In this document: positions 33,503 to 54,408 of the stretch, piece by piece
Numbering within the stretch: position 1 is the first letter of the stretch
Layout: the number at the start of each line of letters is the position of its first letter
Assembly: GCA_965222615.1 (NCBI GenBank)
Contig: CBDCUI010000009.1
Span: 604,264-668,263, forward strand
Length of the DNA: 64,000 nt
Reading direction: 5' to 3'
From: Gammaproteobacteria bacterium
GTDB lineage: Bacteria > Pseudomonadota > Gammaproteobacteria > UBA4575
Translations under genes and position numbers: made by a program
The notes under the pieces: model-generated
Seen by the model: the letters and a program-made list of their open reading frames with translations, nothing else
What the model was told of the DNA's origin: nothing
Databases searched by the model: none

Positions 33503-34366
33503 TTAACTGCTTGCATGTTGTCGTTCAAATTGTACAGGTGTTAAGTAATTCAAGTAACTGTGTCTACGCTGTCGATTGTAAAAAATCTCTATATATTCAA
33601 AGATACTGCGTTTAGCTTGTTCGCGTGTTTTATACTGACAATGATGAGTCAGCTCTGTCTTTAGTGTATGAAAGAAACTCTCCATCGCTGCATTATCTAA
33701 ACAATTGCCTTTACGGCTCATACTACAAGTCATGCGATGGTCTTTCAGTAGTTGATGATATTCAGAGGTGCGATATTCCATGCCTTGATCCGAGTGAATC
33801 AGTAAGTCTCGTTTGCGTGAGCGTTGACTTAAAGCCATCCTAAGCGCATCCAACGTTAAGTGTTTATTACGTTTGTCTGACATCGACCAACCAATGATTT
33901 TTCTAGAAAATAAATCCATAATCACTGCGACATATAACCAACCGGCCCGAGTGGGCACATAGGTGTAATCGGATACCCAGCGTTGATTCGTGTGTTGCGC
34001 AGAGAAGTCACGTTGCAATTGATTGGTTTCTATATGTTCAAACGTCTTACCTCGCTTGCTTCGCTCCCATAAACATTTCATGCGCGTCTTTAACCCGGCT
34101 TGCTTCATCAAGCGTGCCACACGATGTTTGCCACATGGAACACCTGAGGCGTTCAGCTCAGCATGAATTCTAGGATAACCGTATGTCTGTCTTGAAGATT
34201 GATGAATATCGATAATCAGCTTCAGCAATTGTCGATTGGCTTTAGTACGCGCACTCATCGGCCGATCTCGCCATGCATAGTAACCACTCTCAGAGACTTG
34301 CAGTGCACGACATATCCAAGCAATTGGATAATCATGGCGATGCTGATGAACCCACTCAAACTTCAT
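33503..34366 (-). CDS. IS3-family transposase OrfB (DDE integrase core)
   Basis: rve domain with D..D..E (HSDQGMEY ... E). Expressed as an OrfAB fusion by -1 frameshift. Confidence 0.85.
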   Translation of the reverse strand: MKFEWVHQHRHDYPIAWICRALQVSESGYYAWRDRPMSARTKANRQLLKLIIDIHQSSRQTYGYPRIHAELNASGVPCGKHRVARLMKQAGLKTRMKCLWERSKRGKTFEHIETNQLQRDFSAQHTNQRWVSDYTYVPTRAGWLYVAVIMDLFSRKIIGWSMSDKRNKHLTLDALRMALSQRSRKRDLLIHSDQGMEYRTSEYHQLLKDHRMTCSMSRKGNCLDNAAMESFFHTLKTELTHHCQYKTREQAKRSIFEYIEIFYNRQRRHSYLNYLTPVQFERQHASS

Positions 34367-34805: not shown

Positions 34806-36392
34806 TTATTTATATGTGTATTGGAGCATTAACCAGAATTTTTCGGTATCGACGCAAAATAGAGGATCGCTACCAGCGCCAGTACCACAGTCTTCACTGT
34901 AATCCGCGTATTTTATTACTCCAAGTAAACCCTTCTTGCCAAAGAGATCCGGTTTACCCCATAGCAGATTCCATTCTTTACCATAGTCCGAAATTCTGCC
35001 ATTAGGGCCCGTGAAAGTTTTATCTGTTTCAAAGTCATGATAAGAGACAACAATCTTGTTTTTACCAATTACATTACCGAAAAGGCCCAAAATTGTAAGA
35101 TTGACACTAGTATCTTCGATACCTCCTACAGGGGTTGCTGAACCGCCAGTGGGTCCAATGAATTTGTCTGCCCAACCCTGGAATGCATGAAATGTGGCAA
35201 GAGGAGTTTGCAAGGCATTCCCTCCATCACCCTGACCTTCCAGGACTTCCTTTCCTACTGTAATTTGGAATGTAGGCTCACCAATAGGCATGAGACCTAA
35301 ACCATCGACCCGGGTGCCACCAAATCTCACACCTAGCTCAATGTTGTAATAATCATTGTCGTCAAAATCGACGACTTCTACACCTGCACCGTTCTCACCT
35401 GCATCACCCTTTGGATCTTGGTTGGCCCATTCGAACTCAGTTAATAAATCAAGTGAGTCACCCAAAGCATGTTTGCCCGTCCATCTGGCACCAATAGTAT
35501 CGGAATCAAATACAACGGGTGGCACAGGGCCTAGTGCAAATGGCACTCCTCCACCCTCTTGAAATGGTGTTCTATCATTATCTTCGAAATCGAGTAAATA
35601 ACCATATGCTACAAGCTTACCGATATCCGGGAAAGTATAGGAAGCATTTATAAGATGTGCGTCATCCATTTTCCATTCATTAAAAACGGATTTCTCACCA
35701 AAAGTACGCTTAACCTTATTGAGATAGGAATAGGATAGACTAAGGTTTTTGATTGATGTGTTGTCTATACGCAAAGCATCAATGGACACAAAATTATTGC
35801 GCCAAAGAATGTTACCCACCCAGCGATGATTATCATATATGATTTCTTGGCGTCCTAGTTTGAATGAGGTGTTACCACTACAAGGGTCTGGCGAATTTGG
35901 ACAACCTCCTGTATGGCTGCGCCAGCCAAGGTAGAATTCGTTTATTTCTTCATATTCATTGTCAGGAATAATGGAATGGCCTGCTGCTATACGAGATCCG
36001 ACTGGACCTGGTGGAATCCTGAAATCGTCATCGAGATTGAGAGCATTGTCATCACCTAAAGGTCTACCTGCTTCAAACTCACCACGAAGATAAAAGCCGT
36101 GGTAACGGGCCGTAGTCCACCCCCCCACAACACGAGCAGTTAACTGTTCCGCTGTATCCGCACTGGCAATGGGTGATCCTGCCGATATGTCATCATCCAC
36201 CTCTTCGTGTCGAAGCCTTAACCTCATATGCGGTTCGCCATGAACGAGTGCCCTACCTAAAGAATCAGCGGCCGGTAAAAATTTTCCTCGATGTGTATTA
36301 GGAATATCAGTCAGGCCCACTGCTGAAACTCCCTGAGCGATTAAAAAGATGGTGGTTGCCACCAGATAAGAAAGGGGTGTAAATTTGGCCAT
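34806..36392 (-). CDS. Putative outer-membrane beta-barrel/porin-like protein
   Basis: Signal peptide, alternating amphipathic beta-strand character, Gly/Asp/Asn-rich loops. 528 aa. Family not identified. Confidence 0.4.
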   Translation of the reverse strand: MAKFTPLSYLVATTIFLIAQGVSAVGLTDIPNTHRGKFLPAADSLGRALVHGEPHMRLRLRHEEVDDDISAGSPIASADTAEQLTARVVGGWTTARYHGFYLRGEFEAGRPLGDDNALNLDDDFRIPPGPVGSRIAAGHSIIPDNEYEEINEFYLGWRSHTGGCPNSPDPCSGNTSFKLGRQEIIYDNHRWVGNILWRNNFVSIDALRIDNTSIKNLSLSYSYLNKVKRTFGEKSVFNEWKMDDAHLINASYTFPDIGKLVAYGYLLDFEDNDRTPFQEGGGVPFALGPVPPVVFDSDTIGARWTGKHALGDSLDLLTEFEWANQDPKGDAGENGAGVEVVDFDDNDYYNIELGVRFGGTRVDGLGLMPIGEPTFQITVGKEVLEGQGDGGNALQTPLATFHAFQGWADKFIGPTGGSATPVGGIEDTSVNLTILGLFGNVIGKNKIVVSYHDFETDKTFTGPNGRISDYGKEWNLLWGKPDLFGKKGLLGVIKYADYSEDCGTGAGSDPLFCVDTEKFWLMLQYTYK

Positions 36393-37945: not shown

Positions 37946-38962
37946 GTGCTCATTTTAGGTTGGGAGATGATAGGAGGTGTAAGAATGTTTAAAAATAAAA
38001 CGAACGGGTCCACCTTTTTTCTTGCATTAGGATTAATTTTTCTTGTCCTCCCTTCAACTGGGCAAACTGGAGATAAGAATTTTGCGCCAACTATCGCATA
38101 CCAAATGGTCGAGTTAGTACACGATGAAATTGAGCTAATACGAAAACACAAACAAACGCCTGTTGATACACGTGCTAGTTTTCCTGTAGAACATGTTTTC
38201 CCCAGAGAAGTGTATTTCCAAGCCCTTACCTTACGACAAAAGGCAGGGCGCCTTTGTCATGAAACCACTCAATTTTTATTAGCGCCTCCCGCTGCTGTAC
38301 AGTTTTCGATTCCAAAAACAATCACTCCTGAAGACGTATACGATATTGTCAATGACGCGTGGAGCCAAATTCGTTGTGCTAAGGCTGGCCTAAACATAAG
38401 TGAAGAAATCCAGCAATCGGCAAAACAAGGCACGGCTAAGACACTCACAGATGTGTTTAAGTCAATTGTTCAAGCGAATCGGCAGTTAAATTTAATATTA
38501 GAACAACCTATTGAACCAGGAGATGTATATGCCGTCGTTCAACATGCGAATGCGTATATAGTTGATATACTTGACAAATTAGCACCGGTGTGGAGTTTAA
38601 CCGCACCCACACTTCCAGAGTATCAAGCAGGTAAAAGGCCCATCGATATCTACAAACAAATGCTAAAGAACTTCAGGATTATCGAACAAATATCAAAGGA
38701 TTCTGGAATCGATATGCTGAGTTTAGGACCAGAAATACAAACACCGATTACAACTACAGATGTTTTTGATTTGAGTTCTCTTATCCTTTCTGAACTAAGT
38801 TATTTTGCAACACAACTTGGCATAAATCGGATTTACAGATTGGAATCTCATCCTGACAAAGTTCCTTCTGATGTGTATCAGCAAGCACAAATTGTAGAGG
38901 CTCATCTAGAAATATTGGAGGGTTTTACCAAGAAGTATCCGACTTGGACTAAATTAGAGTAA
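37946..38962 (+). CDS. Hypothetical secreted protein
   Basis: Signal peptide (probable start MFKNKTNG at 37985). No recognisable motifs. Confidence 0.4.
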   Translation: MLILGWEMIGGVRMFKNKTNGSTFFLALGLIFLVLPSTGQTGDKNFAPTIAYQMVELVHDEIELIRKHKQTPVDTRASFPVEHVFPREVYFQALTLRQKAGRLCHETTQFLLAPPAAVQFSIPKTITPEDVYDIVNDAWSQIRCAKAGLNISEEIQQSAKQGTAKTLTDVFKSIVQANRQLNLILEQPIEPGDVYAVVQHANAYIVDILDKLAPVWSLTAPTLPEYQAGKRPIDIYKQMLKNFRIIEQISKDSGIDMLSLGPEIQTPITTTDVFDLSSLILSELSYFATQLGINRIYRLESHPDKVPSDVYQQAQIVEAHLEILEGFTKKYPTWTKLE

Positions 38963-39607: not shown

Positions 39608-39790
39608 TTAGTGACAAGGAAAACCTTGCGAATGGCGAATATCATGTGCCGCATTATGCATAGCTGCTGTGTTTACAAAACCCGCACCATACAAAATGAC
39701 ACAGCCAAGTAAAAACGCACATGCAATCTGCAACGGTTTCGAAATCGACCTTGTATGCAAAATAGTTTCAGTTGTAGTCTGATTCTGCAT
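39608..39790 (-). CDS. cbtB: Cobalt transporter subunit CbtB (orphan copy at the operon end)
   Basis: 60 aa, one TM helix, C-terminal HNAAHDIRHSQGFPCH. Paralogous to the cbtB at 50802 (HNAAHDIRHGLAFPCH). Confidence 0.7.
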   Translation of the reverse strand: MQNQTTTETILHTRSISKPLQIACAFLLGCVILYGAGFVNTAAMHNAAHDIRHSQGFPCH

Positions 39791-39840
39791 ATTTACTCCT
39801 TACTTAAAAAAATTAAAAAATTCGATACACTTGTTGGACA

Positions 39841-40683
39841 TCACGTATGGTGCCAACTAAAACGTTTAATGAGCATTGAACACGAACTATCTAAAATGTA
39901 ACCCATTATTCCAATGGTTAGCACCATTGCGGTGAGGTGGTCATAGGATAAAGTTTCACGCGCATCTGCGATAGAGTAGCCTAGGCCTGAAGTCACACCC
40001 AAAAATTCTGCTGGGACAAGTACAATCCAAGCAACACCAAGCGCAAGACGTACACCTGTCAGAATATCGAACATAATTGCAGGCAAAATAATTTGCGTGA
40101 CCATATGCCAAGGCTTAGCCCCTAAATTACGCGCAACTTTGAACCACGCAGGATCTACCTTGGCGAGCCCTGCAGCAGTTGCAAACACGATTGGCCATAC
40201 TGCTGCAATTGCAATAAGAAATACGATTGCGCCATTCCAGGTAGTAAACACAATTACCGCAATCGGCTCCCAGGAAAGCGGGCTGATCATACGAATCAAT
40301 TGAAATGGGGAGTTGCTTAGTTCTCGGAATATTTTGCTACGCCCTAGGAGAATACCGATCGGTACTCCAACGATGATAGCAATAAGTAATCCAATACCTA
40401 GTCGATAACCACTAGTTTTAACTGCTGCTTGGATCTTACCTTCTGCCAATAATTCCGGAAATGCTTGGAACGTTGGAATAGGCCCGAAATCTTTAAAGTT
40501 TGTAGTATTGGGATTTATCTCAATTAAATAACCACCAATCCACCAAAGCACAAATAAAATCGCAAGGCCCGCAGCCCAATTAAACAAGCTCCTACCCATC
40601 GACTTGGCAATAGCCGAGCTTTGAACAGCATTTATAGATTCAATAGCACCTATTTCAGCTGTTTTATCAGTTCCATTACTCAA
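39841..40683 (-). CDS. ABC transporter permease (NrtB/SsuC/TauC type)
   Basis: Six TM helices with an EAA-like loop. Its stop overlaps the upstream substrate-binding-protein gene. Confidence 0.85.
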   Translation of the reverse strand: MSNGTDKTAEIGAIESINAVQSSAIAKSMGRSLFNWAAGLAILFVLWWIGGYLIEINPNTTNFKDFGPIPTFQAFPELLAEGKIQAAVKTSGYRLGIGLLIAIIVGVPIGILLGRSKIFRELSNSPFQLIRMISPLSWEPIAVIVFTTWNGAIVFLIAIAAVWPIVFATAAGLAKVDPAWFKVARNLGAKPWHMVTQIILPAIMFDILTGVRLALGVAWIVLVPAEFLGVTSGLGYSIADARETLSYDHLTAMVLTIGIMGYILDSSCSMLIKRFSWHHT

Positions 40684-41975
40684 AGCTCAAATACCTCGGT
40701 ACGAATGTATGGATCACCTTCTTTGGGTACGCTAGCGTCGTTTCTCCATTTTGGATTCGCTTCAAGAGCGGTCTTGATAAAATCATAATTAACCAAGTCA
40801 TCCGAAACATGTTCTGGAGTAAGCGTATCAAGAAACTTAGCGTCACCTGTAACCACAGTCTCTTTTAAGTCACTAACCACTAACTCGGTAGCAGATCTAT
40901 ATGGCCATGCTTGAAAATCGATGCGGTTTTGATCCCATTCAGGATGTTTAATCGCAAGAGGATTTTGATAGTAAGCAGGATCGTAAAACATCATAGCCCT
41001 TTTCACTACTTCTTTCGGAACTGGCAAATACCCTTTACCATCTTTAGAAAGTCGTTCAGCCATTGCCTCTCTATTTTCAGCAAGATGAATCTGAGCTTTT
41101 ACTACAGCATTATGCACACCTTGTGCCCATGCAGCACGATCAGGATCCATTGCATCTTCCTCATGCATAACAACGACACAACATGGATGTCCTTTCCATG
41201 CATCACCAGTGAAACGTAAAACTTTACCACCGGCTTTAAGCTCACCTAAAGCATTGAATGGTTCTGCCACGCAATAACCATCAATGGTTCCTGCTGCAAG
41301 CGCGGGTGGCATAGACGGTGGCGCCAATACTAAGAAATTACACTCGTCGGGTTCGAGCTTGGCACTTTGCGGTTTAATCACCGGTTTAATCCCAGCCGCT
41401 TTCATAATTCTTTGGGATACGATGTTATGAATCGAATACCAATACGGTACTGCAAACTGTTTACCACCAAAATCTTTTGGCTCATTAATGCCGCTATTCT
41501 TACCGACAAGGACCGCAGAACCATTAGTATGATCCCACGCCGTAATCTTAATTGGATATTTGTTGTTATAACGCATCCAAACTGGAATAGGGATTAACAT
41601 GTGCGTAAGGTTGAAACGATGCGCGGCAAAGGCCTCTACCAAAGGTGACCAACCACGAATAAGTGTAGGCTTAACCGACTCAAGACCTTCATCTTTAAAA
41701 TAACCTTGGTCATGCGCGATCAACAAAGCTGCCGCATCGGTAATGGGTATGTAACCGATTTTAATCACCGGATCCCATTTTTTCTTTGCTGCAAAAATAG
41801 GCATAGGCAATGAGCTCGCACCTCCCGCCAGTGCCGCGAGACCTCCTACTTGTAACAGTTCACGCCGGTTAATACCGGTACCTAAAACACCTTTAAAAAG
41901 TGGATCAAATTCTATAGCAAGTTTAGGATCATCATTTTGGATCCCATCACCATGTTTCTGGTAAATTTTCTTCAT
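40680..41975 (-). CDS. ABC transporter periplasmic substrate-binding protein, NrtA/CmpA/CynA-like (twin-arginine signal)
   Basis: RRELLQVGGLAALAGGA Tat motif and NMT1/NrtA-like fold, about 430 aa. Confidence 0.8.
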   Translation of the reverse strand: MKKIYQKHGDGIQNDDPKLAIEFDPLFKGVLGTGINRRELLQVGGLAALAGGASSLPMPIFAAKKKWDPVIKIGYIPITDAAALLIAHDQGYFKDEGLESVKPTLIRGWSPLVEAFAAHRFNLTHMLIPIPVWMRYNNKYPIKITAWDHTNGSAVLVGKNSGINEPKDFGGKQFAVPYWYSIHNIVSQRIMKAAGIKPVIKPQSAKLEPDECNFLVLAPPSMPPALAAGTIDGYCVAEPFNALGELKAGGKVLRFTGDAWKGHPCCVVVMHEEDAMDPDRAAWAQGVHNAVVKAQIHLAENREAMAERLSKDGKGYLPVPKEVVKRAMMFYDPAYYQNPLAIKHPEWDQNRIDFQAWPYRSATELVVSDLKETVVTGDAKFLDTLTPEHVSDDLVNYDFIKTALEANPKWRNDASVPKEGDPYIRTEVFEL

Positions 41976-42075
41976 AGCGGAATTCCTCTCATCGTTACTC
42001 TAAATAGTAGTTTCTCTTATCTAGTTTCTATCAACGTTAAAAAATCAAATGTACACTTAACTATCATTTTTTTAA

Positions 42076-42906
42076 TCAATTGCCAGCAAACTCGGCATTT
42101 GATGCAGAAGTATCCCCATTATCCATCTGGGCATTTTCTTTTGGCGCCCCCGCTGCATCGTGAAAAATTTGCATAAGGTGAGTACGCATTTTCTGAACTG
42201 CAGGATCTTGTCGATCACGTGGATCTGGAAGATCCACTCTGAGATCATGAACCATCTTGCCGGGCGAACCGGCCATCACTAGCGCACGATCTGCCATGAT
42301 TACTGCTTCGTCTATATCATGTGTCACCATGACTAAGTTAAAACCTAGCTGTTTAGAAATTGCGCGAACATCTTTTTGCAAAGATGCACGAGTAAACGCA
42401 TCTAATGCAGAAAACGGTTCATCCAAAAGAAGCATTTCAGGCTCCATTACTAAAGAACGTGCTAAAGCTACTCGTTGTTGTTGCCCACCTGAGAGATCTT
42501 GAGTATTTTTTTTCGTATACTCTTCCATGTTAACCAAACTAATTGCTTCGTTAACACGATCACGAATTTTATTTTTTGACCAACCAGCAAAACGTAATCC
42601 GGTACCGACATTTTGTTCAACCGTCATCCAGGGAAATAGATGTGGAGCCTGAAACATCATCACCCATTTTGATGAAGGGTCTTTAACATCTTTATTATTT
42701 AACTGCACGGTACCACTGTAATTTCCCAACAAACCAGCGACGATGTGAAGTAAAGTGGACTTACCGCACCCGGAGCGACCGATAATGACAAGTGACTCAC
42801 CGGGTTGTGCCTCCATATCCACTTTGTCAAAAGTAAGTGGACACTTTGAGTTATATCGGTGGGTAAGATCCTTTACATTAATATGTACACCATTGCGTTC
42901 TGCCAT
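42076..42906 (-). CDS. ABC transporter ATP-binding protein (NrtD/SsuB type)
   Basis: Walker A GRSGCGKST, signature LSGGQQQRVALARSL, Walker B LLLDEPFSALD. Start placed at MAERNG (42906). Confidence 0.85.
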   Translation of the reverse strand: MAERNGVHINVKDLTHRYNSKCPLTFDKVDMEAQPGESLVIIGRSGCGKSTLLHIVAGLLGNYSGTVQLNNKDVKDPSSKWVMMFQAPHLFPWMTVEQNVGTGLRFAGWSKNKIRDRVNEAISLVNMEEYTKKNTQDLSGGQQQRVALARSLVMEPEMLLLDEPFSALDAFTRASLQKDVRAISKQLGFNLVMVTHDIDEAVIMADRALVMAGSPGKMVHDLRVDLPDPRDRQDPAVQKMRTHLMQIFHDAAGAPKENAQMDNGDTSASNAEFAGN

Positions 42907-43071
42907 GTGTAATCCCTTCTGTAATATCGTAGTTTCGGACTGCCAACTACCTGGTTCAACGCTTAACCGGGAATTGAGCGCTCCCTTCAAACTGTGTTGA
43001 TACATCAAGTAAGCTGCTCCATTCGACCTGTGTGGATATACTTGTTAATAAGACCGCTCTTTTTCATGAAA

Positions 43072-43434
43072 TTATTCAGCAATAATCTTGTCAGACCATT
43101 CAACGTCTTCAACAAAAGTATCAGGATTACCTGGTTGTGCACCTGCTTTTGCCATATCATCTTCTGTAACACCTCGTGCTCTTGAACATGCACCGCAACA
43201 TTCAATTCGTACACCATTCTCAATAGCTTCATTCCACTGCTCAGCCACCGAGGGCCACCCAAGTGGAACCATATTCTCACGAACCACTGGCCGTGCAAGA
43301 CATACTGCTTCGCCTAGCAGAAATATTCGAATCTCATGGCCCTTACCAGCCAATGCGTTAGCATGTCCAAACACCATCGCTGCTCGTGTTGGATCATCAC
43401 TCCCCCATGATGACTTCATAAAAATCTTTGCCAT
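43072..43434 (-). CDS. DsrE/DsrF-like (YchN/TusD fold) sulfur-relay family protein
   Basis: 120 aa, pattern AAMVFGHANALAGKGHEIRIFLLGEAV ... CCGAC conserved Cys pair. Assigned by recall. Confidence 0.5.
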   Translation of the reverse strand: MAKIFMKSSWGSDDPTRAAMVFGHANALAGKGHEIRIFLLGEAVCLARPVVRENMVPLGWPSVAEQWNEAIENGVRIECCGACSRARGVTEDDMAKAGAQPGNPDTFVEDVEWSDKIIAE

Positions 43435-43528
43435 GACTCCTTCCTAATTTTCACTACTTAGTTATTATTTTTTTATTAACCAAAACTTTTTTCTGGTCTG
43501 TCGATACAAATTCGAAGCAGGTTTTGTA

Positions 43529-43930
43529 TCACACCATATTGAGACGTTTATCAACCTCCTTTATACGACGCTTGAGTTCATCTTCATCAATAAGGCCTCT
43601 ACGAATCATGGAATGGACCAGTGCTAATAGTTGCCGTTCTGGAAATGGGACATCTGCATAGTGATCTTCAGATAATTCATCTTCTTCCCAACGACGTTCT
43701 AGTGCCGGTAATGCACAAGCAACTTCAGATAAAACATCACAGGTCGCTTCTAGCGTAATCTTCCAAGGTGGGTCAGGATTATCCACGCCATATTGTTCAC
43801 ATAAATCGCCCCAGACTCTTCCTTCCTTTTTAATTTCTTCAAGTAACGAAATTGGAGATTTATCCAAATTCCGATTTGTCATTTCTTCATCTAGTTTGAT
43901 TTTCTCAGGATTGATTTCGACCATCATCAT
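43529..43930 (-). CDS. Small acidic accessory protein, putative metallochaperone/activator for the adjacent enzyme
   Basis: 133-aa Glu/Asp-rich protein immediately downstream of the catalytic subunit gene (stop/start 2 bp apart). This is the position of NHase/SCNase activator genes. No diagnostic motif. Confidence 0.35.
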   Translation of the reverse strand: MMMVEINPEKIKLDEEMTNRNLDKSPISLLEEIKKEGRVWGDLCEQYGVDNPDPPWKITLEATCDVLSEVACALPALERRWEEDELSEDHYADVPFPERQLLALVHSMIRRGLIDEDELKRRIKEVDKRLNMV

Positions 43931-43932
43931 TC

Positions 43933-44628
43933 CTAGTGTTTGTAAGGCTTAATGGCTTTTCGAATCGGTCGTGGGTCGTTTGTAGTCTTACCTGGTTTCG
44001 GTAACGCTACGCCAATTAAACAATCCCGTGTAACAATTTCGGTTAATTGATCTTCAGTCCAACCCTCTGTTCCCTCAGGACGTACTGGCATCACAATAAA
44101 CCGAGACTTCTGATTCGAGTCTTCAACTCTCACTTCAACGTCTGCTGGAAGCTGCAAACCAAACTCTGCAAGTACTTGGCGCGGCCAGCGTACTAAGCGT
44201 CGTCGATAGTTCGGTGTTCGATACCACTCTGGAGATTGACCAAGAATCGGTCGTGGGTAACAGGAACACAGTGTACACACCACCACGTGATGTAGCTTCG
44301 GTGTATCCTCAAGAACACGTAAATTGCAATAATCACTAGGTGTACCAAACTTAGTAGGCATTTGATTAACCCAGTCGATACCTACTTCCAGACTGGCTTT
44401 AACACCGTCTTCCACAGCCAACTTTTTGAATTCAGGATCCAACCATGCTTTGGCAACTAGACGCGCAGCAGGTGTTGGCCCCAGTGTGTGCATATATTCT
44501 GTCCACGCCTGATGATCTTCCGCAGTGAACAGACCTTTCTCAATAGCAAGTTCGCGAACCGCAATTTCAAGTATCTCAAACTCACTGACTTCATCCACCA
44601 TTGGTGCGGGTTTATGCTTCTCTGCCAT
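43933..44628 (-). CDS. scnC: Cobalt-type nitrile hydratase alpha-subunit family protein; thiocyanate hydrolase gamma subunit-like
   Basis: Metal-binding claw VVCTLCSCYP (Co-type CTLCSCY, not the Fe-type CSLCSCT), 231 aa. Confidence 0.85.
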   Translation of the reverse strand: MAEKHKPAPMVDEVSEFEILEIAVRELAIEKGLFTAEDHQAWTEYMHTLGPTPAARLVAKAWLDPEFKKLAVEDGVKASLEVGIDWVNQMPTKFGTPSDYCNLRVLEDTPKLHHVVVCTLCSCYPRPILGQSPEWYRTPNYRRRLVRWPRQVLAEFGLQLPADVEVRVEDSNQKSRFIVMPVRPEGTEGWTEDQLTEIVTRDCLIGVALPKPGKTTNDPRPIRKAIKPYKH

Positions 44629-44686
44629 TTGTTCTTCCTCTTCTAATAATTAAGTTCTGATTGTTCTGCTGTATCGCTGTTGTTTT

Positions 44687-45055
44687 TTAAAGAGGCTCTA
44701 GCCATCGCTCGGGTAACTCAGTCTCTAAAGTATCGTTTGCAAATGTATCTGGATAATCCGGCCAAAGATCCTTTTGCTTGAATACCAAACTATAAAACCA
44801 TTCAGGATTTTCCGTGTTATCCCAAGCCTCATCTTCTGCAGGAGGGCTTTCATAGACCAATGCAACAACAACTGCAGGAGCGCCACGTGTATAAGCTTGA
44901 GTGCGGGTATAAAAAATATCTGGCAGATCTCTGATACGTACTTTATCGCCTACTTTAAATTTAGGTTTGCTAGCTTCACCTTTAAAGCATTGTGGATCAC
45001 CTATTCCAGTAGCTTTTTTGACATGATGCTCTCTATCGTAATGTGGCTTACTCAT
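44687..45055 (-). CDS. scnA: Nitrile hydratase beta-subunit C-terminal-half homolog; thiocyanate hydrolase alpha subunit-like
   Basis: KFKVGDKVRIRDLP ... YTRG ... LWPDYPD ... WLEPL matches the C-terminal half of NHase beta. Start at MSKPHYD (45055). Confidence 0.75.
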   Translation of the reverse strand: MSKPHYDREHHVKKATGIGDPQCFKGEASKPKFKVGDKVRIRDLPDIFYTRTQAYTRGAPAVVVALVYESPPAEDEAWDNTENPEWFYSLVFKQKDLWPDYPDTFANDTLETELPERWLEPL

Positions 45056-45479
45056 AACGTTTTTTAACCTCGTCAATCTTGTCCTGAAGTTCAGTAAGTG
45101 TGACGTATTGCTTATCAACTAATATCAATGCAGCGGTAAGCAACCACCGACCATAATAAGGAAGACCCAAATATTGCGTCTGACCTACATCTACGTTTTG
45201 GCGACGCCGTCTTTCCTCTGCATTCCAAACACCGCGCCAAGCTAAAACTTCACAAGTTACAAAGGTATTGTGTTCCCACACTTCCTCTTCCTTTTCTTCC
45301 CAAGGAATGGGCACATCTCGTTCACCGCCTACGTCATGTGCTGCTCGTGTATAGGCACGATATTGTTCGTTAGTAACCTCATCGGGAGATGGGGCATGTG
45401 TTTCTTGATGCAACGCTGGCTGTAACAGACCGACAAGATTAAGATGGCTTAGAACTCGATCTCTAGTAGAAGATGACAT
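45048..45479 (-). CDS. scnB: Nitrile hydratase beta-subunit N-terminal-half homolog; thiocyanate hydrolase beta subunit-like
   Basis: AHDVGG motif characteristic of the NHase beta N-terminus, 143 aa. First gene of the operon. Confidence 0.75.
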   Translation of the reverse strand: MSSSTRDRVLSHLNLVGLLQPALHQETHAPSPDEVTNEQYRAYTRAAHDVGGERDVPIPWEEKEEEVWEHNTFVTCEVLAWRGVWNAEERRRRQNVDVGQTQYLGLPYYGRWLLTAALILVDKQYVTLTELQDKIDEVKKRYE

Positions 45480-45500
45480 GGCCTTGTACTCCTTCTTCCG

Positions 45501-45518
45501 ATTATTTTTTTAAATAAT
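45501..45518. promoter_or_regulatory. Putative LysR-type T-N11-A box (ATTATTTTTTTAAATAAT palindrome) in the divergent intergenic region
   Basis: Interrupted dyad between the divergent lysR and scnB starts. Confidence 0.35.
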
Positions 45519-45676
45519 TTTTGGCAAGTTGTCTTGCAGCTCAAGCGATACGCACTGTTTTAGAATTTGGTTATATACTTATTTTATAAGGTATTCACTT
45601 GACCTGATGACAAGTCTAATGGAGATGTGTTATTAATCCCAAGACTTTGTATTTATAAATCCTATAGGAGTTACCT

Positions 45677-46717
45677 ATGGATAGACGACATATCTTCCCG
45701 CGATCTCTTCAATATTTGATCGCAATTGCTGAACATGGCAGCTATACCCGTGCCGCCGAGGTATTACACGTCTCTCAGCCAACTTTATCGCAACAAATTA
45801 AGCAATTAGAAGGATCATTGGGATCGCCGCTATTAGACCGTTCCGGTAGAACAGTACGCTTAACTGATGCCGGAAAAATTTATCTACATCATGTGCGTCG
45901 TGCTTGGGGCGAACTCGATGCAGGAACTCGCGCAATTAACGATGTGCAAGATTTAACCCGTGGCTTTTTGCGTTTGGGATGGACTCCAATCACCGACTAC
46001 ATGACTTGTTCCTTATTGGAAAACTTTAACAGTCGCTATCCCGGCATCACATTAAGCACTTTGGAAATGCCTCAAGATGATATTGAAGTGGCCGTATCTG
46101 AAGCCCATATCGATGTCGGTATTGTTTTCAGTAAACCATTTTCGCCTGAAGCAAGACCAACCGAAATTGTTACTGACATGTTGTTTAAAGAACCACTATG
46201 CGTTGCCGTAGGTAATGCACATCCTCTTGCTGGAAAGCAGGAAACCATGAGTGTAGAAGAACTTGGCGAAGAATCTTTGGTTTTACTCAATACTCACTTC
46301 GCGATGCGGCGCCACCTTGATCTGTATTGCCGCAATCAAGACATTTCACCGCGCATTGCAATCGAAACAAATTCTCTTAGCGTAATTATAGAACTGATTC
46401 AGCTCGGTGCACTTGCGACTATACTACCTATCAGTATCATTCATTCACAGTATGGTCTTTATGCAATTAATGTTTCACCCGAAATACCACCTAAAGCAAT
46501 CACCTTAATTTACCGTAAAGGTGCTTACAGAAGTCCAGCCTGTCTAGCTTTTTCAGAATTGGCTGCAGATTGGTCTGCGCGCAGACTTCAGGAAATTCCG
46601 ATTCGAAGACGACTACCTTATCCACTACCTGAAAAATATTATCAAAACAAAAATCAACAAAATCCTAAAGAAGAGCCGTTGGCAAAGAAGGTGCAAAACA
46701 TTATGAAAATAGATTGA
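45677..46717 (+). CDS. LysR family transcriptional regulator, divergent from the scn-like operon
   Basis: N-terminal wHTH (LQYLIAIAEHGSYTRAAEVLHVSQPTLSQQIKQLE), LysR substrate-binding domain. Confidence 0.85.
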   Translation: MDRRHIFPRSLQYLIAIAEHGSYTRAAEVLHVSQPTLSQQIKQLEGSLGSPLLDRSGRTVRLTDAGKIYLHHVRRAWGELDAGTRAINDVQDLTRGFLRLGWTPITDYMTCSLLENFNSRYPGITLSTLEMPQDDIEVAVSEAHIDVGIVFSKPFSPEARPTEIVTDMLFKEPLCVAVGNAHPLAGKQETMSVEELGEESLVLLNTHFAMRRHLDLYCRNQDISPRIAIETNSLSVIIELIQLGALATILPISIIHSQYGLYAINVSPEIPPKAITLIYRKGAYRSPACLAFSELAADWSARRLQEIPIRRRLPYPLPEKYYQNKNQQNPKEEPLAKKVQNIMKID

Positions 46718-46751: not shown

Positions 46752-48065
46752 TTATTTATTTGTAACCGCTACGTGAACTTCACCCTCTAAGACAGGCGGT
46801 AATGGCCCGCCCGTTGCCCAATCTAATAATTCAACAGTATGCACCACCGGTATTTTCGTAGCAGAGCCAATCTGTAACATACACCCTATATTACCTGCAG
46901 CAATGACATGTGGCGCACCAAGCTGCAGTGACTCAACTTTACGCGCTCTTAACTGCTTTGAAATTTCGGGCTGCAAAAGGTTATAGGTACCAGCAGAACC
47001 ACAACATGTGTGTGGATCTTTTGGTTCGAGTACAGTAAAACCCGCTGCTTTTAATAGCTTTTTTGGTGTAAACCTAATTCGCTGCCCAAATTGTAGTGAG
47101 CATGTGGCATGATAAGCCACGCGTAAATTGGGCATTGCCTTATAGTCCAAGTCGATTTTCGACAAAACTTCGGTAATGTCTTGAGCTAACGCAGAAATCG
47201 TCGCAGCATCTTGTGATAAATCACTATTTCGAAATATCTCGACATAGTTTTTCACCATGACTCCACAGCCGCTAGCGTTGATCACCACTGCATCCAATCC
47301 TGCATCATTTACTTCTTTCATCCAGGCGCGAATGTTTTTCGCCGCCATCGCAAGACTTGGTTGAGACTTGCCCATATGGTAAGTCAACGCACCACAACAA
47401 CTAGCGCCATCAGCAACGACCACTTCGCATCCATGACGACGTAAAATGCGAATGGTTGCATTATTGATATTCGTATTCAGTGCCTTTTGCGCACAACCAG
47501 TCATCAAGACTACGCGACGCTTACATTCACCTTTTGCTGGAACAACTTGTGGTTCATCATTTGGGTTTGATGGCGATAACGTATTGGGCACCAACTCCAG
47601 CATTGCGCGCATTCTCTTGGGCAACGGACTGCTCGGCAATGACTTAGCTAATTGCCCCAAACGCATCATTATTCGCAAGCGTTTCGAGTAGGGCAAAATT
47701 TGTGCCAGGACCCAACGTTGGATGCGGTCAAATAGTGGGCGGTCATAGTTGTCCTCGATATATTCTCGGGCATGATCCACTAAATGCATATAGTTCACAC
47801 TCGACGGACAGGTAGACATACACACTAAACAAGACAAGCAACGATCAATATGGTTGACGGTCTTTTTACTTGGCTCACCCCCATTCTCTAACATTTCCTT
47901 AATAAGATAAATGCGCCCACGTGGGCTATCAAATTCGTCTCCCAATAACTGATAAGTCGGACAGTTATTAATACAGTAACCACATTGCAAGCAGGCACTT
48001 AGCTCCACGTTAGACTGGGCCATAATAGGATTAGCCAGTTGTTCGGAAGTAAAATTGGTTTGCAT
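46752..48065 (-). CDS. GlcF/GlpC/HdrD-like iron-sulfur protein (two 4Fe-4S motifs plus two CCG domains)
   Basis: CLQCGYCINNCP and CLSCLVCMSTCP ferredoxin motifs; CCG motifs (ASCCGA, HTCCGSAG). No glcD/glcE partner adjacent. Confidence 0.75.
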   Translation of the reverse strand: MQTNFTSEQLANPIMAQSNVELSACLQCGYCINNCPTYQLLGDEFDSPRGRIYLIKEMLENGGEPSKKTVNHIDRCLSCLVCMSTCPSSVNYMHLVDHAREYIEDNYDRPLFDRIQRWVLAQILPYSKRLRIMMRLGQLAKSLPSSPLPKRMRAMLELVPNTLSPSNPNDEPQVVPAKGECKRRVVLMTGCAQKALNTNINNATIRILRRHGCEVVVADGASCCGALTYHMGKSQPSLAMAAKNIRAWMKEVNDAGLDAVVINASGCGVMVKNYVEIFRNSDLSQDAATISALAQDITEVLSKIDLDYKAMPNLRVAYHATCSLQFGQRIRFTPKKLLKAAGFTVLEPKDPHTCCGSAGTYNLLQPEISKQLRARKVESLQLGAPHVIAAGNIGCMLQIGSATKIPVVHTVELLDWATGGPLPPVLEGEVHVAVTNK

Positions 48066-48449: not shown

Positions 48450-48890
48450 ATGAATAAAGAAGAAATGACCGACTGCATTATTGCAGCAAAAAAAGCTAAA
48501 GGTCTCACCTGGGAAACCATTGCTCACAAAGTTGGTAAAGGCACAACCTGGGTAACCTCTGCTTGTTTAGGAATGAACAGCACCACTGAGGAAGTCGCAA
48601 AAAGCTTATGCGAAATTCTTGGGCTCGATGAAGATGTTTGTACAACATTACAAGAATATCCACACAAGGCATGGGACAAAACGATACCGCAAGATCCAGT
48701 AGTCTATCGATTTTATGAAATCGTTGGTGTCTATGGCGATACTATTAAAGAAATTATAGCTGAGAAGTTTGGGGATGGAATTATGAGTGCTATCGATTTT
48801 TCTATGGATATTGACAAAGAAGAAAACCCTAAAGGCGATCGAGTGGTAATCACCATGAATGGTAAATTCTTAAAATATACTTCGTGGTAA
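48450..48890 (+). CDS. cynS: Cyanase (cyanate hydratase)
   Basis: Strong match to E. coli CynS along its length (DPVVYRFYEIVGVYGDTIKEIIAEKFGDGIMSAIDF ... VVITMNGKFLKY). Start at MNKEEMTD (48450). Confidence 0.9.
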   Translation: MNKEEMTDCIIAAKKAKGLTWETIAHKVGKGTTWVTSACLGMNSTTEEVAKSLCEILGLDEDVCTTLQEYPHKAWDKTIPQDPVVYRFYEIVGVYGDTIKEIIAEKFGDGIMSAIDFSMDIDKEENPKGDRVVITMNGKFLKYTSW

Positions 48891-49204
48891 TTGAACAAAC
48901 GCTGATTTCTTTTTTTGAGCAAGTAGCTCAAAAAGATACAAGTCAATTAAACAAATTAAAACAAAATAAGTATTTCAGTGTAGAAAAGGAGCGCTGGTGT
49001 TTTACTTTGCCTGATTTATATGCCTTTCTGCGATTACAAAATGATGACTTAAACGACATTGATTACCAACAATTTCGAAAATTAATTTTTAACAGTCCTA
49101 TTAATCAAACCATTAAATCATATGGAGCTGAAATTACGATTACAGACAATCAAACCAATGTCGATAAATCAAGCTATGCACTAGTCTGGAAAAGTATGAA
49201 ATAA
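48884..49204 (+). CDS. Hypothetical small protein
   Basis: 106-aa ORF overlapping the cynS stop. No motif. Confidence 0.25.
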   Translation: MVIEQTLISFFEQVAQKDTSQLNKLKQNKYFSVEKERWCFTLPDLYAFLRLQNDDLNDIDYQQFRKLIFNSPINQTIKSYGAEITITDNQTNVDKSSYALVWKSMK

Positions 49205-50801: not shown

Positions 50802-50999
50802 ATGAGTACAGTCAAAGAGGCAACCAGCTTGCTAACTCAAATCCAAACTGGTGAGATACCTTGGTCAACTATATATGCCGTTAGTGCAGCCATTCTCACT
50901 GGTGTATTCATTATTGCAGCCGTAGGTTTTGCTGGACCAGAAGTTTTGCATAATGCTGCTCATGACATTCGTCATGGATTAGCTTTTCCTTGTCACTAA
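50802..50999 (+). CDS. cbtB: Cobalt transporter subunit CbtB
   Basis: 65 aa, one TM helix, C-terminal HNAAHDIRHGLAFPCH. Confidence 0.75.
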   Translation: MSTVKEATSLLTQIQTGEIPWSTIYAVSAAILTGVFIIAAVGFAGPEVLHNAAHDIRHGLAFPCH

Positions 51000-51020
51000 A
51001 CTTTTACAACCTCAATAACA

Positions 51021-51728
51021 ATGAAAACCTTTAATAGGATTTTTTTGTCGGCGCTATTTTCTGGTGTACTAGCCGGTCTAGTACTCGCAGGAATCCAACA
51101 CTTTACCGTCATCCCAATGATTCTAGAAGCCGAAACCTATGAGACAACCGATACAAATGAAAATACAACTGCAATGAATCAAGAGGAAGAAGCCTGGGCA
51201 CCTGAAGATGGTGCTGAAAGAACTTTTTATACGGCTACGAATAGTATGATTGTTGGTATCGGGTTTGGTCTACTATTAGCAGCATGCTATGCATTTCGAG
51301 GCAGTGTTACTTGGGGCAAGGGCCTGTTATGGGGGCTTGCTGGTTTTGCCACATTTCACCTCGCGCCTTCTTTTGGTTTACCTCCAGAACTTCCTGGAGA
51401 TGCTGCCGCTGGTTTGGAACAAAGACAAATTTGGTGGTTATTAACCGTAATTGTTACAGCAATGGGGCTTTGGATCATTGCTTTTCAACCAAAACATTAT
51501 CTTAAATTATTCGGTGTAGCATTAATCATATTGCCGCATATATTTGGTGCACCACAACCTGAAGTGCATGGAGGCTTAGCTCCGGAAGAGCTTAGAAATA
51601 CTTTTATGTATACCTCTCTTGCTACAAACGCAATTTTCTGGATTGTGTTAGGAATGCTTAGCGCCTATTTTTACAATAGATTTGATAAACCTATAGAAAA
51701 TACAGCAGTGAACGCTGCATTGAGTTAA
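51021..51728 (+). CDS. cbtA: Cobalt transporter subunit CbtA
   Basis: 235-aa, five-TM protein with a His/Asp/Glu-rich periplasmic loop, directly after cbtB. Confidence 0.7.
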   Translation: MKTFNRIFLSALFSGVLAGLVLAGIQHFTVIPMILEAETYETTDTNENTTAMNQEEEAWAPEDGAERTFYTATNSMIVGIGFGLLLAACYAFRGSVTWGKGLLWGLAGFATFHLAPSFGLPPELPGDAAAGLEQRQIWWLLTVIVTAMGLWIIAFQPKHYLKLFGVALIILPHIFGAPQPEVHGGLAPEELRNTFMYTSLATNAIFWIVLGMLSAYFYNRFDKPIENTAVNAALS

Positions 51729-52074: not shown

Positions 52075-54408
52075 ATGCCTTTGGAAAATAACAATAAATT
52101 AAAATTTAATTTTTTAAAATTCGTCATCGCTATATTTTTTAAACGAAAAAAAATATTAGTAGTTCATAATACTTACATTAAAAACGTATCTTTTTTTTCT
52201 GTAGTCATAATTTTTTCATTTGTAAGTTTAAGCACAGTCGCAATTGCAGAAGAAAGTGTCCAACTAGAAGATATGATAGTTGAAGACACTAAAATCCTAG
52301 AGTTCGACCAGCCAGGTGAGTTGCATCTTGTAACTCCAAGTGAAACAGGGACAAGGTTAGGCTTAACTCCATTAGAAACACCAGCTTCTGTTGAAATAAT
52401 TGATCAAACAAACATAGAACGAATAGGTGCGCAGAGTATCGGGGATGCATTAATTACGCTTCCAGGAGTGACGGTGGGTGAATCTCCCGCAGCACCTTCA
52501 AGCTTTTCTATGCGTGGATTTACTAGAAGCCAAATTACTTTATTACGAGATGGAATATGGTTAGGGCCCGCAAATATGGTAAGTAGGCCACAGAACGCAT
52601 GTAATTTGGATCGTCTTGAATTAATCCGAGGTCCAGCATCTGGTTTACACGGACAAGGATCAGTTGCAGGTGCTATAAATTCGGTAACGAAAAAGGCACG
52701 TGAAACAGATAATTATAATCATGGTGCGCAATTGTTCTATGGTCGGTGGGACACTTACCAAGTGTGTGGTGGTAGTGCAGGACCAGTTGCGGATTCTCTT
52801 TGGTATCAATTTGATATTAGTCAAAATGGGGCTGATGGCTTTGTTGATGATATGGATCCTGAATCGACAAATATTAATGGCAGTTTATTGTGGAAACCTA
52901 AAAATAATCTTTCTGTCAGATTTAGTGCGGACTACTTAGATGATGAATTAGCAAACTACTGGGGTACACCTCTAGTGCCTGCAAGTGTCGGCACAGATCG
53001 AATAAGTGGTGTCATCGAAACGGCTGCGGGTGAAGTATTAGATGAGCGCACTCGTGATGAAAATTACAATGTGTCTGATTATGAAGCTGAGTCCGATCAA
53101 ATATTGATGCGCACAGATTTGGAATGGATGCCACTAAGCAATGTTCGTGTAAGAAACACGCTGTACTACTTTGATGCGGATCGCGATTGGTTTAACGCAG
53201 AAGGATTTATTTATAATGATTTGACTGACTTGATTGACCGAACGAATGGATTTTTCTTTGTTCAACATGAACAAGAAATGTGGGGTGGCAAGCTAGATAT
53301 CACCACTGATCACCAATTATTTGGCAAAGATAATCAATTTGTATTTGGTGTTGATTATCAGGATCTTGATTTTGAACGCACACGTGGGTTTCGTTTCTCT
53401 GCAGTACCAGGTGACTCTGTCGATCTATTTGATCCGGTTCAAGGTGTCTATGGACCGGTGGAACCAAGAGGGGTTAGTCCTACAGATATAAATACCTGGG
53501 GAGTGTTTTTTGAAGATGCATTGCAAGTAACTGATAGATTCAGTTTAGTCACCGGGCTACGTTATGAGCAACTACATTTACGACGGCAAAATTTTGATTT
53601 ACGCCCGGGGAATGTCGGAAATGATGAGGGAAGTGGATTTACACGCAACTTTGATTCTGTGGGTTGGCGTGTTGGTGGTGTGTTTTCTTTAACACCTAAT
53701 ATAAATGTTTATGCACAATACAGTAATGCACAAGACCCAGTGAATTCTAATATTTTTCTTGTGAATGATGGTGAAGATTTTGATCTCACTGATGCTGAGC
53801 AGTGGGAAGTCGGATTAAAAGCGAGGAATATTGATAATTCATTAAATTTTACAATCGCATACTTTGACATTGAGCGAGATGATGTCTCTGAACTCATTGG
53901 TGTTGATAGTGCAGTGAATGTGGGTGGCAGAAAATCCAAAGGATTTGAAGCAGCAATTAATTATGCACCAACTTCCTATCTAGATGTGGCTGCGAATATC
54001 GCCTATGTTGATGCGGAATTCGAAGACTCTGTGAACTTTGTAACATTTGCTGGTAATACACCACCCAACGTACCGGATTGGACAGCAAATGCCTGGGTCA
54101 ATGTCCGGCCCTTTCAAACGTTTCCAATAGAATTTGGTGCATGGTATCGCTATGTGGATGATCGCTATGGTACAAATGATAATACTGCAATTTTGAAAGA
54201 TTATTCATTACTAGATCTGTCTGCAACCTACAGGTTTCGAGATAATTTAGATATCACAGCTCGTGTGCGAAATGCCATGGATGAAGATTATGTTGCTTGG
54301 GCTGATGTATTTTATTTTCAACAGACTGATCCTGGTTTTCCATTTGCCAATCAAGTCTTGTTGGGCGAACCAAGAAGTTATGAGTTAAATCTTGTGTTAC
54401 GGTATTAG
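52075..54408 (+). CDS. TonB-dependent outer-membrane receptor
   Basis: Plug domain (ETPASVEIIDQTNIERIGAQSIGDALITLPGV), about 22-strand barrel length, C-terminal LNLVLRY. The start is probably downstream of the listed Met, since the signal peptide begins at about residue 40. Confidence 0.85.
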   Translation: MPLENNNKLKFNFLKFVIAIFFKRKKILVVHNTYIKNVSFFSVVIIFSFVSLSTVAIAEESVQLEDMIVEDTKILEFDQPGELHLVTPSETGTRLGLTPLETPASVEIIDQTNIERIGAQSIGDALITLPGVTVGESPAAPSSFSMRGFTRSQITLLRDGIWLGPANMVSRPQNACNLDRLELIRGPASGLHGQGSVAGAINSVTKKARETDNYNHGAQLFYGRWDTYQVCGGSAGPVADSLWYQFDISQNGADGFVDDMDPESTNINGSLLWKPKNNLSVRFSADYLDDELANYWGTPLVPASVGTDRISGVIETAAGEVLDERTRDENYNVSDYEAESDQILMRTDLEWMPLSNVRVRNTLYYFDADRDWFNAEGFIYNDLTDLIDRTNGFFFVQHEQEMWGGKLDITTDHQLFGKDNQFVFGVDYQDLDFERTRGFRFSAVPGDSVDLFDPVQGVYGPVEPRGVSPTDINTWGVFFEDALQVTDRFSLVTGLRYEQLHLRRQNFDLRPGNVGNDEGSGFTRNFDSVGWRVGGVFSLTPNINVYAQYSNAQDPVNSNIFLVNDGEDFDLTDAEQWEVGLKARNIDNSLNFTIAYFDIERDDVSELIGVDSAVNVGGRKSKGFEAAINYAPTSYLDVAANIAYVDAEFEDSVNFVTFAGNTPPNVPDWTANAWVNVRPFQTFPIEFGAWYRYVDDRYGTNDNTAILKDYSLLDLSATYRFRDNLDITARVRNAMDEDYVAWADVFYFQQTDPGFPFANQVLLGEPRSYELNLVLRY

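Follow-up and report, generated by a model that had tools for sequence, protein, structure and literature searches.

A putative thiocyanate-utilisation operon of the known scn type with a DsrE-fold CxxC protein in an uncultured low-GC gammaproteobacterium

A stretch of 64,000 nucleotides from an uncultured low-GC gammaproteobacterium (GTDB lineage UBA4575; assembly GCA_965222615.1, contig CBDCUI010000009.1, forward-strand positions 604,264 to 668,263), hereafter called the window, carries nine consecutive minus-strand genes at 39608-45479 and a divergent plus-strand gene at 45677-46717. Judged from their sequences, these genes very probably form a thiocyanate-utilisation operon of the known scn type. 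Its first three genes encode the subunits of a predicted thiocyanate hydrolase (SCNase), and the remaining six encode a putative activator, a DsrE-fold protein with a CxxC motif, a candidate ATP-binding cassette (ABC) importer and a proposed cobalt-transporter subunit. An initial annotation of the window had regarded this combination of genes as undescribed. However, the same modules have been published together and the layout is widespread in public genomes, so that the locus is an ordinary new example of a published scn cluster and not a new system. As an SCNase cluster it adds little, as genes for the enzyme, activator, transporter, cobalt, sulfur and cyanase functions have been published before. 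Its one point of interest is a DsrE-fold protein with CxxC that is associated with cyanase as well as SCNase; if this protein has a definite biochemical role, it would close a gap in the metabolism of cyanate and thiocyanate.

Identity of the enzyme and its activator

Sequence comparison identifies the enzyme as an SCNase, orthologous to the one crystallised from Thiobacillus thioparus. The top match of all three subunits in the PDB is the T. thioparus SCNase 2DD4, with E values of 1.1e-128 for scnC against 2dd4_C, 2.6e-67 for scnB against 2dd4_B (an alignment covering residues 1-141) and 9.4e-60 for scnA against 2dd4_A. In tblastn, the beta, alpha and gamma subunits are 77%, 71% and 83% identical, respectively, to those of T. 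thioparus DSM 505. Among the NCBIfam models, the gamma subunit passes the equivalog for the gamma subunit of thiocyanate hydrolase (TIGR03887; 392.7 bits, cut-off 291.45) and falls short of that for the alpha subunit of nitrile hydratase (TIGR01323, nitrile_alph; 207.6 bits, cut-off 249.85). Furthermore, it scores 431 bits against the crystallised SCNase and 192 bits against the best nitrile hydratase alpha subunit in the PDB.

The residues of the active site agree with these scores. The cobalt-type cysteine claw and the residues following it, VCTLCSCYPRP, are identical to those of 2dd4_C and include the SCNase-type arginine after YP (gamma Arg136), so that the window has YPRP where nitrile hydratases have YPWP. 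The arginine stretch of the beta subunit is also kept, reading EERRRRQN in the window and EERRRKQN in 2dd4_B. Functional roles of gamma Arg136 and of the beta-subunit arginine pair in SCNase are reportedly described by Arakawa et al. 2007, and the PDB entry 3VYG is an engineered R-to-W variant of SCNase. The NHase_beta_N and NHase_beta_C families lie on separate, overlapping open reading frames (ORFs), which amounts to a split beta subunit. The scnA ORF spans 44687-45118, and its real ATG lies at 45055, overlapping the scnB stop in ATGAGTAA. The Pfam matches and ORF coordinates thus bear out the cobalt-type, split-beta enzyme with VCTLCSCY on three minus-strand genes that the initial annotation had described. 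Its assignment to SCNase and not to ordinary nitrile hydratase also holds, both in the equivalog scores with the 2DD4 match and in the pocket residues.

Relatives of the locus were surveyed with one genome per species. Among the 600 stretches listed, 572 encode a ScnC relative, so that the species-level genomes with relatives number several hundred at the least. The loci studied in detail are the best 80 of these 572 or more, with ScnC 79-93% identical. The order scnB-scnA-scnC is found in all 80, and a seven-gene core of scnBAC, P15K, ATPase, binding protein and permease is complete in 64 of the 70 loci that have enough downstream sequence.

This survey also bears on the possibility of an ordinary cobalt nitrile hydratase with organic nitriles as its substrates, beside which the other genes would lie by coincidence. 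The Pfam families involved are indeed nitrile-hydratase families, and VCTLCSCY is the motif of cobalt nitrile hydratases too. Cobalt nitrile hydratases, such as those of Pseudonocardia thermophila (1IRE) and Bacillus (1V29), share with the window the superfamily, the claw and a downstream activator gene, but they differ in their single-polypeptide beta subunit of about 220 amino acids (aa) and in YPWP, and the window gamma subunit lies below the nitrile hydratase alpha cut-off. The replacement of the nitrile-hydratase tryptophan (CSCYPW) by arginine, the split beta subunit, the large deficit in bit score against any nitrile hydratase and the conservation of the neighbours in 64 of 70 loci all speak against this possibility. 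It was rejected on the equivalog scores and YPRP, and is considered extremely improbable. For the SCNase ScnBAC, the predicted reaction is SCN- + 2 H2O -> COS + NH3 + OH- (EC 3.5.5.8), where COS is carbonyl sulfide.

The gene following scnC encodes an acidic 133-aa protein that is 63% identical (E 1e-53) to the product of the gene directly after scnC in T. thioparus DSM 505. A P15K homologue occupies the same position in 76 of the 80 loci, and the P15K-type protein has a weak NHase_beta_N similarity in Pfam. By its title, the study of Kataoka et al. 2006, which PMC3511329 cites, gives P15K a role in functional SCNase expression. The identification of the small acidic protein as a P15K-type activator that would mature the cobalt centre rests on orthology. 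The putative activator or metallochaperone of the initial annotation is borne out by this identity and by the position after scnC.

Operon layout, regulation, transport and cobalt supply

The features of the locus are collected in Table 1. All family calls pass the profile searches in Pfam and NCBIfam, which the initial annotation had proposed as a check. Intergenic gaps across the nine genes range from -8 to about 100 nt, and the permease start overlaps the stop of the binding-protein gene by 4 nt. Apart from this overlap and that of scnB and scnA, the gaps measure 2-100 nt. A terminator scan found no terminator-like site or hairpin in any gap of the operon; such sites occur only inside coding regions. 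A promoter scan gave fewer promoter-like sites than in shuffled sequence. The tight and partly overlapping nine-gene run with a divergent LysR gene, as it had been annotated, is confirmed by the coordinates, the gaps and the absence of terminators in the gaps. Moreover, none of the outcomes named beforehand as counter-evidence, such as nitrile-type pocket residues or DsrE-like and CbtB calls that fail in profile searches, was encountered.

Table 1. Coordinates of the scn, cyn and cbt features in the window and the evidence for each
Feature	Coordinates	Strand	Evidence
scnB, SCNase beta subunit (= N-terminal half of nitrile-hydratase beta)	45048-45479	-	PF21006 NHase_beta_N, E 4e-18
scnA, SCNase alpha subunit (= C-terminal half of nitrile-hydratase beta)	44687-45055	-	PF02211 NHase_beta_C, E 5e-21
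scnC, SCNase gamma subunit, catalytic, cobalt-binding	43933-44628	-	NHase_alpha, E 3.5e-72; VCTLCSCYPRP
Putative P15K-type SCNase activator / cobalt-insertion helper, 133-aa, acidic	43529-43930	-	T. thioparus DSM 505 homologue
DsrE-fold protein, 120 aa, C80-G-A-C83 motif	43072-43434	-	PF02635, 55.3 bits (cut-off 22.7)
ABC transporter ATPase, NitT/TauT type	42076-43008	-	PF00005, E 3e-35
Periplasmic binding protein NMT1_2, NrtA/CmpA-like, candidate thiocyanate binder	40680-41975	-	PF13379, E 7e-37
ABC transporter permease	39841-40683	-	PF00528 BPD_transp_1, E 5e-22
scn-linked cbtB	39608-39790	-	TIGR02459, 68.2 bits (cut-off 64.4); PF09489, E 2e-19
cynR-type LysR regulator, divergent from scnB	45677-46717	+	HTH_1 + LysR_substrate; NF008416
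LysR-type T-N11-A box (TAT-N7-ATA), cynR-scnB intergenic	45654-45666		41-region alignment
cynS, cyanase	48450-48890	+	NF002773, 210.3 bits (cut-off 150); TIGR00673, 175.5 bits (cut-off 113.3)
cbtB-cbtA pair	cbtB 50802-50999, cbtA 51021-51728	+	PF09489, E 3.4e-16; TIGR02458, 252 bits (cut-off 182.9)

The divergent regulator is of the CynR type, passing the CynR equivalog NF008416 with 356.6 bits (cut-off 277). Its T-N11-A box reads TATAGGATTTATA on the scn strand and lies within the 197-bp intergenic region shared with scnB. An alignment of the cynR-proximal 80 nt of 41 homologous intergenic regions contains a conserved element CC-TAT-N7-AT(A), in which the TAT...AT columns are at least 80% conserved, so that the annotated dyad is also conserved across relatives. 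The conservation of the CC part, which is GG on the cynR strand, may reflect the ribosome-binding site of cynR. A divergent cynR adjoins scnB in 42 of the 80 loci, and 47 of the 80 have cynS at a distance of up to 10 kb from scnC.

The combination of an NMT1_2 binding protein, a BPD_transp_1 permease and an ABC ATPase in one operon corresponds to an importer of the NitT/TauT type. The translation of the binding-protein gene contains the twin-arginine motif NRRELL with a hydrophobic stretch after it, in agreement with a twin-arginine translocation (Tat) signal. Its PDB matches are NrtA (E 7.7e-12), CmpA and the C-terminal domain of NrtC/CmpC. The annotated NrtA/CynA-type importer with a Tat-signal binding protein therefore stands on the Pfam families, the PDB matches and the NRRELL motif. 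Across scn loci the binding protein has an identity of 55-91%, compared with only 27-28% to the cynA-type binding proteins of cynS-linked operons. Because the scn-linked proteins form an orthologous group of their own, a distinct transporter specificity is suggested. The ATPase lies below every NCBIfam equivalog cut-off, and its orthologues are syntenic in 72 of the 80 loci.

Cobalt supply appears to be served by proteins of the Cbt type. No cbtA lies beside the scn-linked cbtB. The initial annotation had called this cbtB an orphan; the CbtB assignment and the lack of an adjacent cbtA stand, but the word is wrong because a canonical cbtB-cbtA pair lies at 50802-51728 in the same window, 11 kb away. 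The two CbtB copies are 49% identical and have the C-terminal sequence HNAAHDIRHxxxFPCH in common. CbtA, encoded at 51021, is the likely cobalt-supply partner of CbtB. No riboswitch, cobalamin or other, was found near either cbtB at the Rfam gathering threshold. In the survey, cbtB lies downstream of the transporter in 25 of the 68 loci with room for it, and many other scn loci have cbtA and cbtB together after the transporter. The scn clusters of T. thioparus and Thiodiazotropha have CbiM instead, and an Acidithiobacillus locus has NicO. As the component is CbtB/CbtA, CbiM or NicO depending on the locus, a cobalt-uptake component is a recurrent but interchangeable part of scn clusters.

The surroundings of the cobalt genes were also recorded. 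The cbtB-cbtA pair is followed on the plus strand by genes for a TonB-dependent siderophore-type receptor (52075-54408) and a PepSY_TM protein (54417-55856). The pair is syntenic in the low-GC relatives L002, L007, L012, L016, L018 and L037, and the receptor in L007, L012 and L016. CbiM and a class-I S-adenosylmethionine (SAM) methyltransferase recur upstream of scn (L003, 4253-5862; L020, 4161-4985; L064, 6209-8653) in Thiodiazotropha, other gammaproteobacteria and T. thioparus, and both are absent from the window.

Taken together, a pathway can be proposed. Thiocyanate would bind to the Tat-exported NMT1_2 protein in the periplasm and enter the cell through the ABC permease and ATPase. ScnB, ScnA and ScnC would form a Co(III) enzyme converting SCN- to COS and NH3, as expected from orthology to the crystallised and assayed T. 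thioparus enzyme. The P15K-type protein would mature the cobalt centre, and CbtB, probably with CbtA (encoded at 51021) as its partner, would help to supply cobalt. CynR, acting at the T-N11-A box, may control the divergent scn operon and probably cynS also, the cyanase gene of the same neighbourhood. The DsrE-fold CxxC protein would be an accessory of this nitrogen-release module. From the linkage with CynR and CynS, it is argued that the locus is a nitrogen-scavenging module for cyanate and thiocyanate.

Several points weigh against this pathway. Co-transcription of the nine genes is suggested by spacing and conserved order only. All transporter proteins fall below the cut-offs of the NCBIfam nitrate, sulfonate and taurine equivalogs (ntrB, 123 vs 209; SsuA_fam, 83 vs 163; ntrCD, 196 vs 292), and thiocyanate is the obvious candidate substrate from context only. 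For CbtB and CbtA, the NCBIfam definitions themselves (hypoth_equivalog) speak only of "proposed" cobalt transport. Additionally, the window showed no gene for a COS hydrolase or beta-carbonic anhydrase, for SQR or for TusA, and the locus does not account for the fate of COS. A scan for the beta-carbonic anhydrase/COS hydrolase pattern C[SAGIVM]D[SA]R...HxxCG likewise gave no match in the window or in 174 loci, a weak negative obtained without a positive control.

The DsrE-fold CxxC protein

The AlphaFold2 (AF2) model of the DsrE-fold protein has a predicted local distance difference test (pLDDT) score of 93.7, and its fold matches only DsrE/YchN proteins. C80 aligns with the active-site Cys78 of TusD, which is the DsrE Cys78 position. 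In an alignment of 21 homologues, D13, H24 and C83 are invariant and C80 of the CxxC is nearly so, and a motif MKSxWGSDDPT is present. The protein fails the TusD equivalog TIGR03012 (23.3 bits, cut-off 89.25), and neither the ORF table nor Pfam gives a partner gene for DsrF/H, TusB/C or TusA in the operon. Thus, of the DsrE/TusD-like sulfur carrier named in the initial annotation, the PF02635 membership, the fold and the cysteine position are upheld, but the failed TusD equivalog and the missing partners do not support the carrier function. Orthology to the DsrE_2 protein of the T. thioparus cluster was considered and rejected, as the two share 30% identity over 56 residues (E 0.007).

The gene lies between those for P15K and the ATPase in 10 of the 80 scn loci. 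A sister clade, 61-66% identical (one member 57%), has CDAC for CGAC and occurs in DNA with a GC content of 0.60-0.66. Its genes stand 7-60 nt after cynS in cynA(NMT1_2)-permease-ATPase-cynS-dsrE operons without SCNase, in seven loci or locus groups. Operons of this kind in high-GC bacteria are those of L083-L085, L089-L094 and L098-L101. Furthermore, there is a large soil clade of homologues with signal peptides and unrelated neighbours; it made up most of a metagenome scan with the DsrE alignment, which added five informative loci. No paper on the link of this DsrE-fold protein to cyanase and SCNase, or on the cynS-dsrE operons, was found in the searchable literature.

Two further loci illustrate the range of contexts. 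In L081, from Acidithiobacillus sp. M4-SHS-6 (CP175559.1, 4013-10497), an SCNase-like enzyme has an unsplit 276-aa beta subunit containing both beta domains, and its alpha subunit has 72% identity to ScnC. Next come an activator-like gene, a DsrE-fold gene (63% identical), an FNT channel, a porin-like gene, cynS and NicO, and the locus thus contains the same functional modules with other transporter and cobalt parts. In L097 (5359-7363), a 70%-identical DsrE-fold homologue lies by an ArsR-rhodanese regulator, MsrB and a fatty-acid hydroxylase, with neither scn nor cynS within 7 kb.

The initial annotation had proposed an undescribed type of operon in which the DsrE-like protein would pass sulfur from COS or sulfide into sulfur trafficking. 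The confirmed fold and Pfam membership, the cysteine aligned with TusD Cys78 and the rhodanese-domain regulator next to the L097 homologue are in line with such a relay, as is the T. thioparus cluster, whose DNA and published description (PMC5328954) include a different DsrE_2 together with TusA and SQR. However, the window protein is not orthologous to that DsrE_2, no TusA, DsrF, DsrH or SQR partner is encoded nearby, the TusD equivalog is failed, and the module combination is already published and widespread. Above all, the sister clade follows cynS in operons without any enzyme for a sulfur substrate. Because cyanate contains no sulfur and yet the sister clade follows cynS, the case for a relay of sulfur from COS is weak, and the proposal is considered rather unlikely. 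Its context therefore ties the DsrE-fold protein to the module for nitrogen release from cyanate and thiocyanate, with no demonstrable tie to sulfur, and the protein tracks the ammonia-releasing step that the two pathways share.

A need common to cyanase and SCNase offers another explanation, in which the CxxC protein would stand in for CynT or a COS hydrolase, or would protect or repair thiols, without any sulfur relay. Its genes adjoin cynS in at least seven loci without SCNase and adjoin SCNase in at least 13 loci with three transporter types (ABC, FNT channel and with NicO). The conserved D13, H24, C80 and C83, and the absence of a beta-carbonic anhydrase motif from the 174 loci in the scan without a positive control, would also be compatible with it. 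Against these points stand the fold, with its matches confined to DsrE/YchN proteins, the soil clade with its unrelated neighbours and the rhodanese-domain regulator beside the L097 homologue, and the explanation draws purely on context. It is put forward tentatively. With the same caution, the cytoplasmic DsrE CxxC subfamily might consist of dedicated partners of the two enzymes that free ammonia from pseudohalides, namely cyanase in cynABD-cynS-dsrE operons and SCNase in scn operons with ABC or FNT transporters. They would serve a need left unmet by the other genes of these loci, and not a classical sulfur relay. Candidates for such a shared job are conversion of CO2, bicarbonate or COS and the protection of thiols against (thio)carbamoylation.

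Genomic setting, distribution and comparison with known systems

The window is chromosomal, as it carries rpoE-rseAB-degP-lepA, fusA, folP, dnaX and the signal recognition particle (SRP) RNA. Transposase/integrase genes of insertion sequence (IS) types bracket the scn/cyn/cbt region (34-56 kb), namely one of IS3 type at 33503-34366 on the minus strand and one of IS30 type at 55949-56935 on the plus strand. The GC content is 0.39 for the window and 0.43 for the scn region. The bracketing transposase genes and this difference in GC content fit a horizontal acquisition. For Legionella pneumophila Paris and Lorraine, a putative, horizontally acquired SCNase with a GC content of 41-43% vs 38% has been described (PMC3218107).

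Between cynR and cynS lies a lone gene for a glcF-equivalog Fe-S/CCG-domain protein (46752-48065, minus strand; NF008434, 426.7 bits, cut-off 333). Homologues 62-74% identical adjoin cynR in at least 17 of the 80 scn loci, also without glcD or glcE, and their neighbours include CbiM, a methyltransferase, an alpha/beta hydrolase or a MauG-like protein. The glcF-like gene is thus a conserved, if puzzling, neighbour of scn clusters. Membership of a glcDEF operon was rejected, since no glcD or glcE is adjacent in the window or in relatives. The last 7 nt of cynS are shared with a 106-aa ORF (48884-49204, plus strand), for which neither Pfam nor NCBIfam gives a match. Its homologues occur in 24 of the 80 scn loci, and in L012 the homologue follows cynS immediately and in the same orientation. 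Close to the downstream end of the scn operon, two sizeable ORFs of 528 aa (34806-36392, minus strand) and 338 aa (37946-38962, plus strand) are also without a match in Pfam or NCBIfam. The 528-aa product may be an outer-membrane protein, having a signal-peptide-like start and an aromatic-rich end.

The scnBAC-P15K-ABC core is seen in lucinid symbionts, Sedimenticolaceae, Thiotrichales, Thiobacillus, Hyphomicrobiaceae and others. The conservation and spread of this core are relevant where thiocyanate serves as a source of nitrogen, in marine as well as in engineered systems. The identical nine-gene order with a divergent cynR is found in four loci, L012 (OZ241890.1), L016, L018 and L038, from metagenome-assembled genomes (MAGs) of uncultured low-GC Gammaproteobacteria/Thiotrichales with a GC content of 0.38-0.40. 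These loci also have cynS, and their proteins are 65-93% identical to those of the window. L012, L016 and L018 share in addition the cbtB-cbtA pair, a cpdA-like gene and the 106-aa gene after cynS, and L012 and L016 the TonB-dependent receptor. The window differs from all four in the lone glcF-like gene inserted between cynR and cynS. No annotation of these four loci was found in the searchable literature.

Published descriptions cover the same modules. Berben et al. 2017 reported scnABC with a hypothetical gene, a NitT/TauT ABC transporter, a DsrE-like protein, a cyanase and a cobalt-transporter subunit (PMC5328954). In the DSM 505 cluster, the downstream genes include a DsrE/F-like "peroxiredoxin", TusA and SQR, and a similar layout is present in Thioalkalivibrio thiocyanodenitrificans (PMC5328954). 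Rahman et al. 2017 cite a "conserved operon" from Kantor et al. 2015 (PMC5458468), and in a Thiodiazotropha symbiont SCNase and cyanase are both encoded and transcribed (PMC11171427).

Among characterised systems, the cluster of T. thioparus THI115/DSM 505 resembles the window in its three-subunit Co(III) enzyme and in the order scnB-scnA-scnC-P15K-ATPase-binding protein-permease. A cyanase and a cynR-type regulator are also nearby, and a cobalt-uptake component and a DsrE-superfamily gene belong to the cluster. The layout read from its DNA (L064) is CbiM, cynS, methyltransferase, scnBAC, P15K, ATPase, binding protein, two permeases, DsrE_2, TusA and SQR. The cobalt component is CbiM in T. thioparus and CbtB in the window, which has one permease gene where T. 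thioparus has two. The DsrE-superfamily gene of T. thioparus encodes a PF13686 DsrE_2 protein and follows the transporter, with TusA and SQR after it, whereas that of the window encodes a PF02635 protein with CxxC and lies between P15K and the ATPase. Moreover, the window is without the methyltransferase gene, and its cynR is directly divergent from scnB. The E. coli cyn operon and cyanobacterial cynABDS, which serve cyanate utilisation under CynR, share with the window a CynR-type regulator with a T-N11-A box, a cyanase and a NitT/TauT-type transporter. In the window, however, the divergent operon encodes an SCNase, and the binding protein is only 27-28% identical to the cynS-linked ones.

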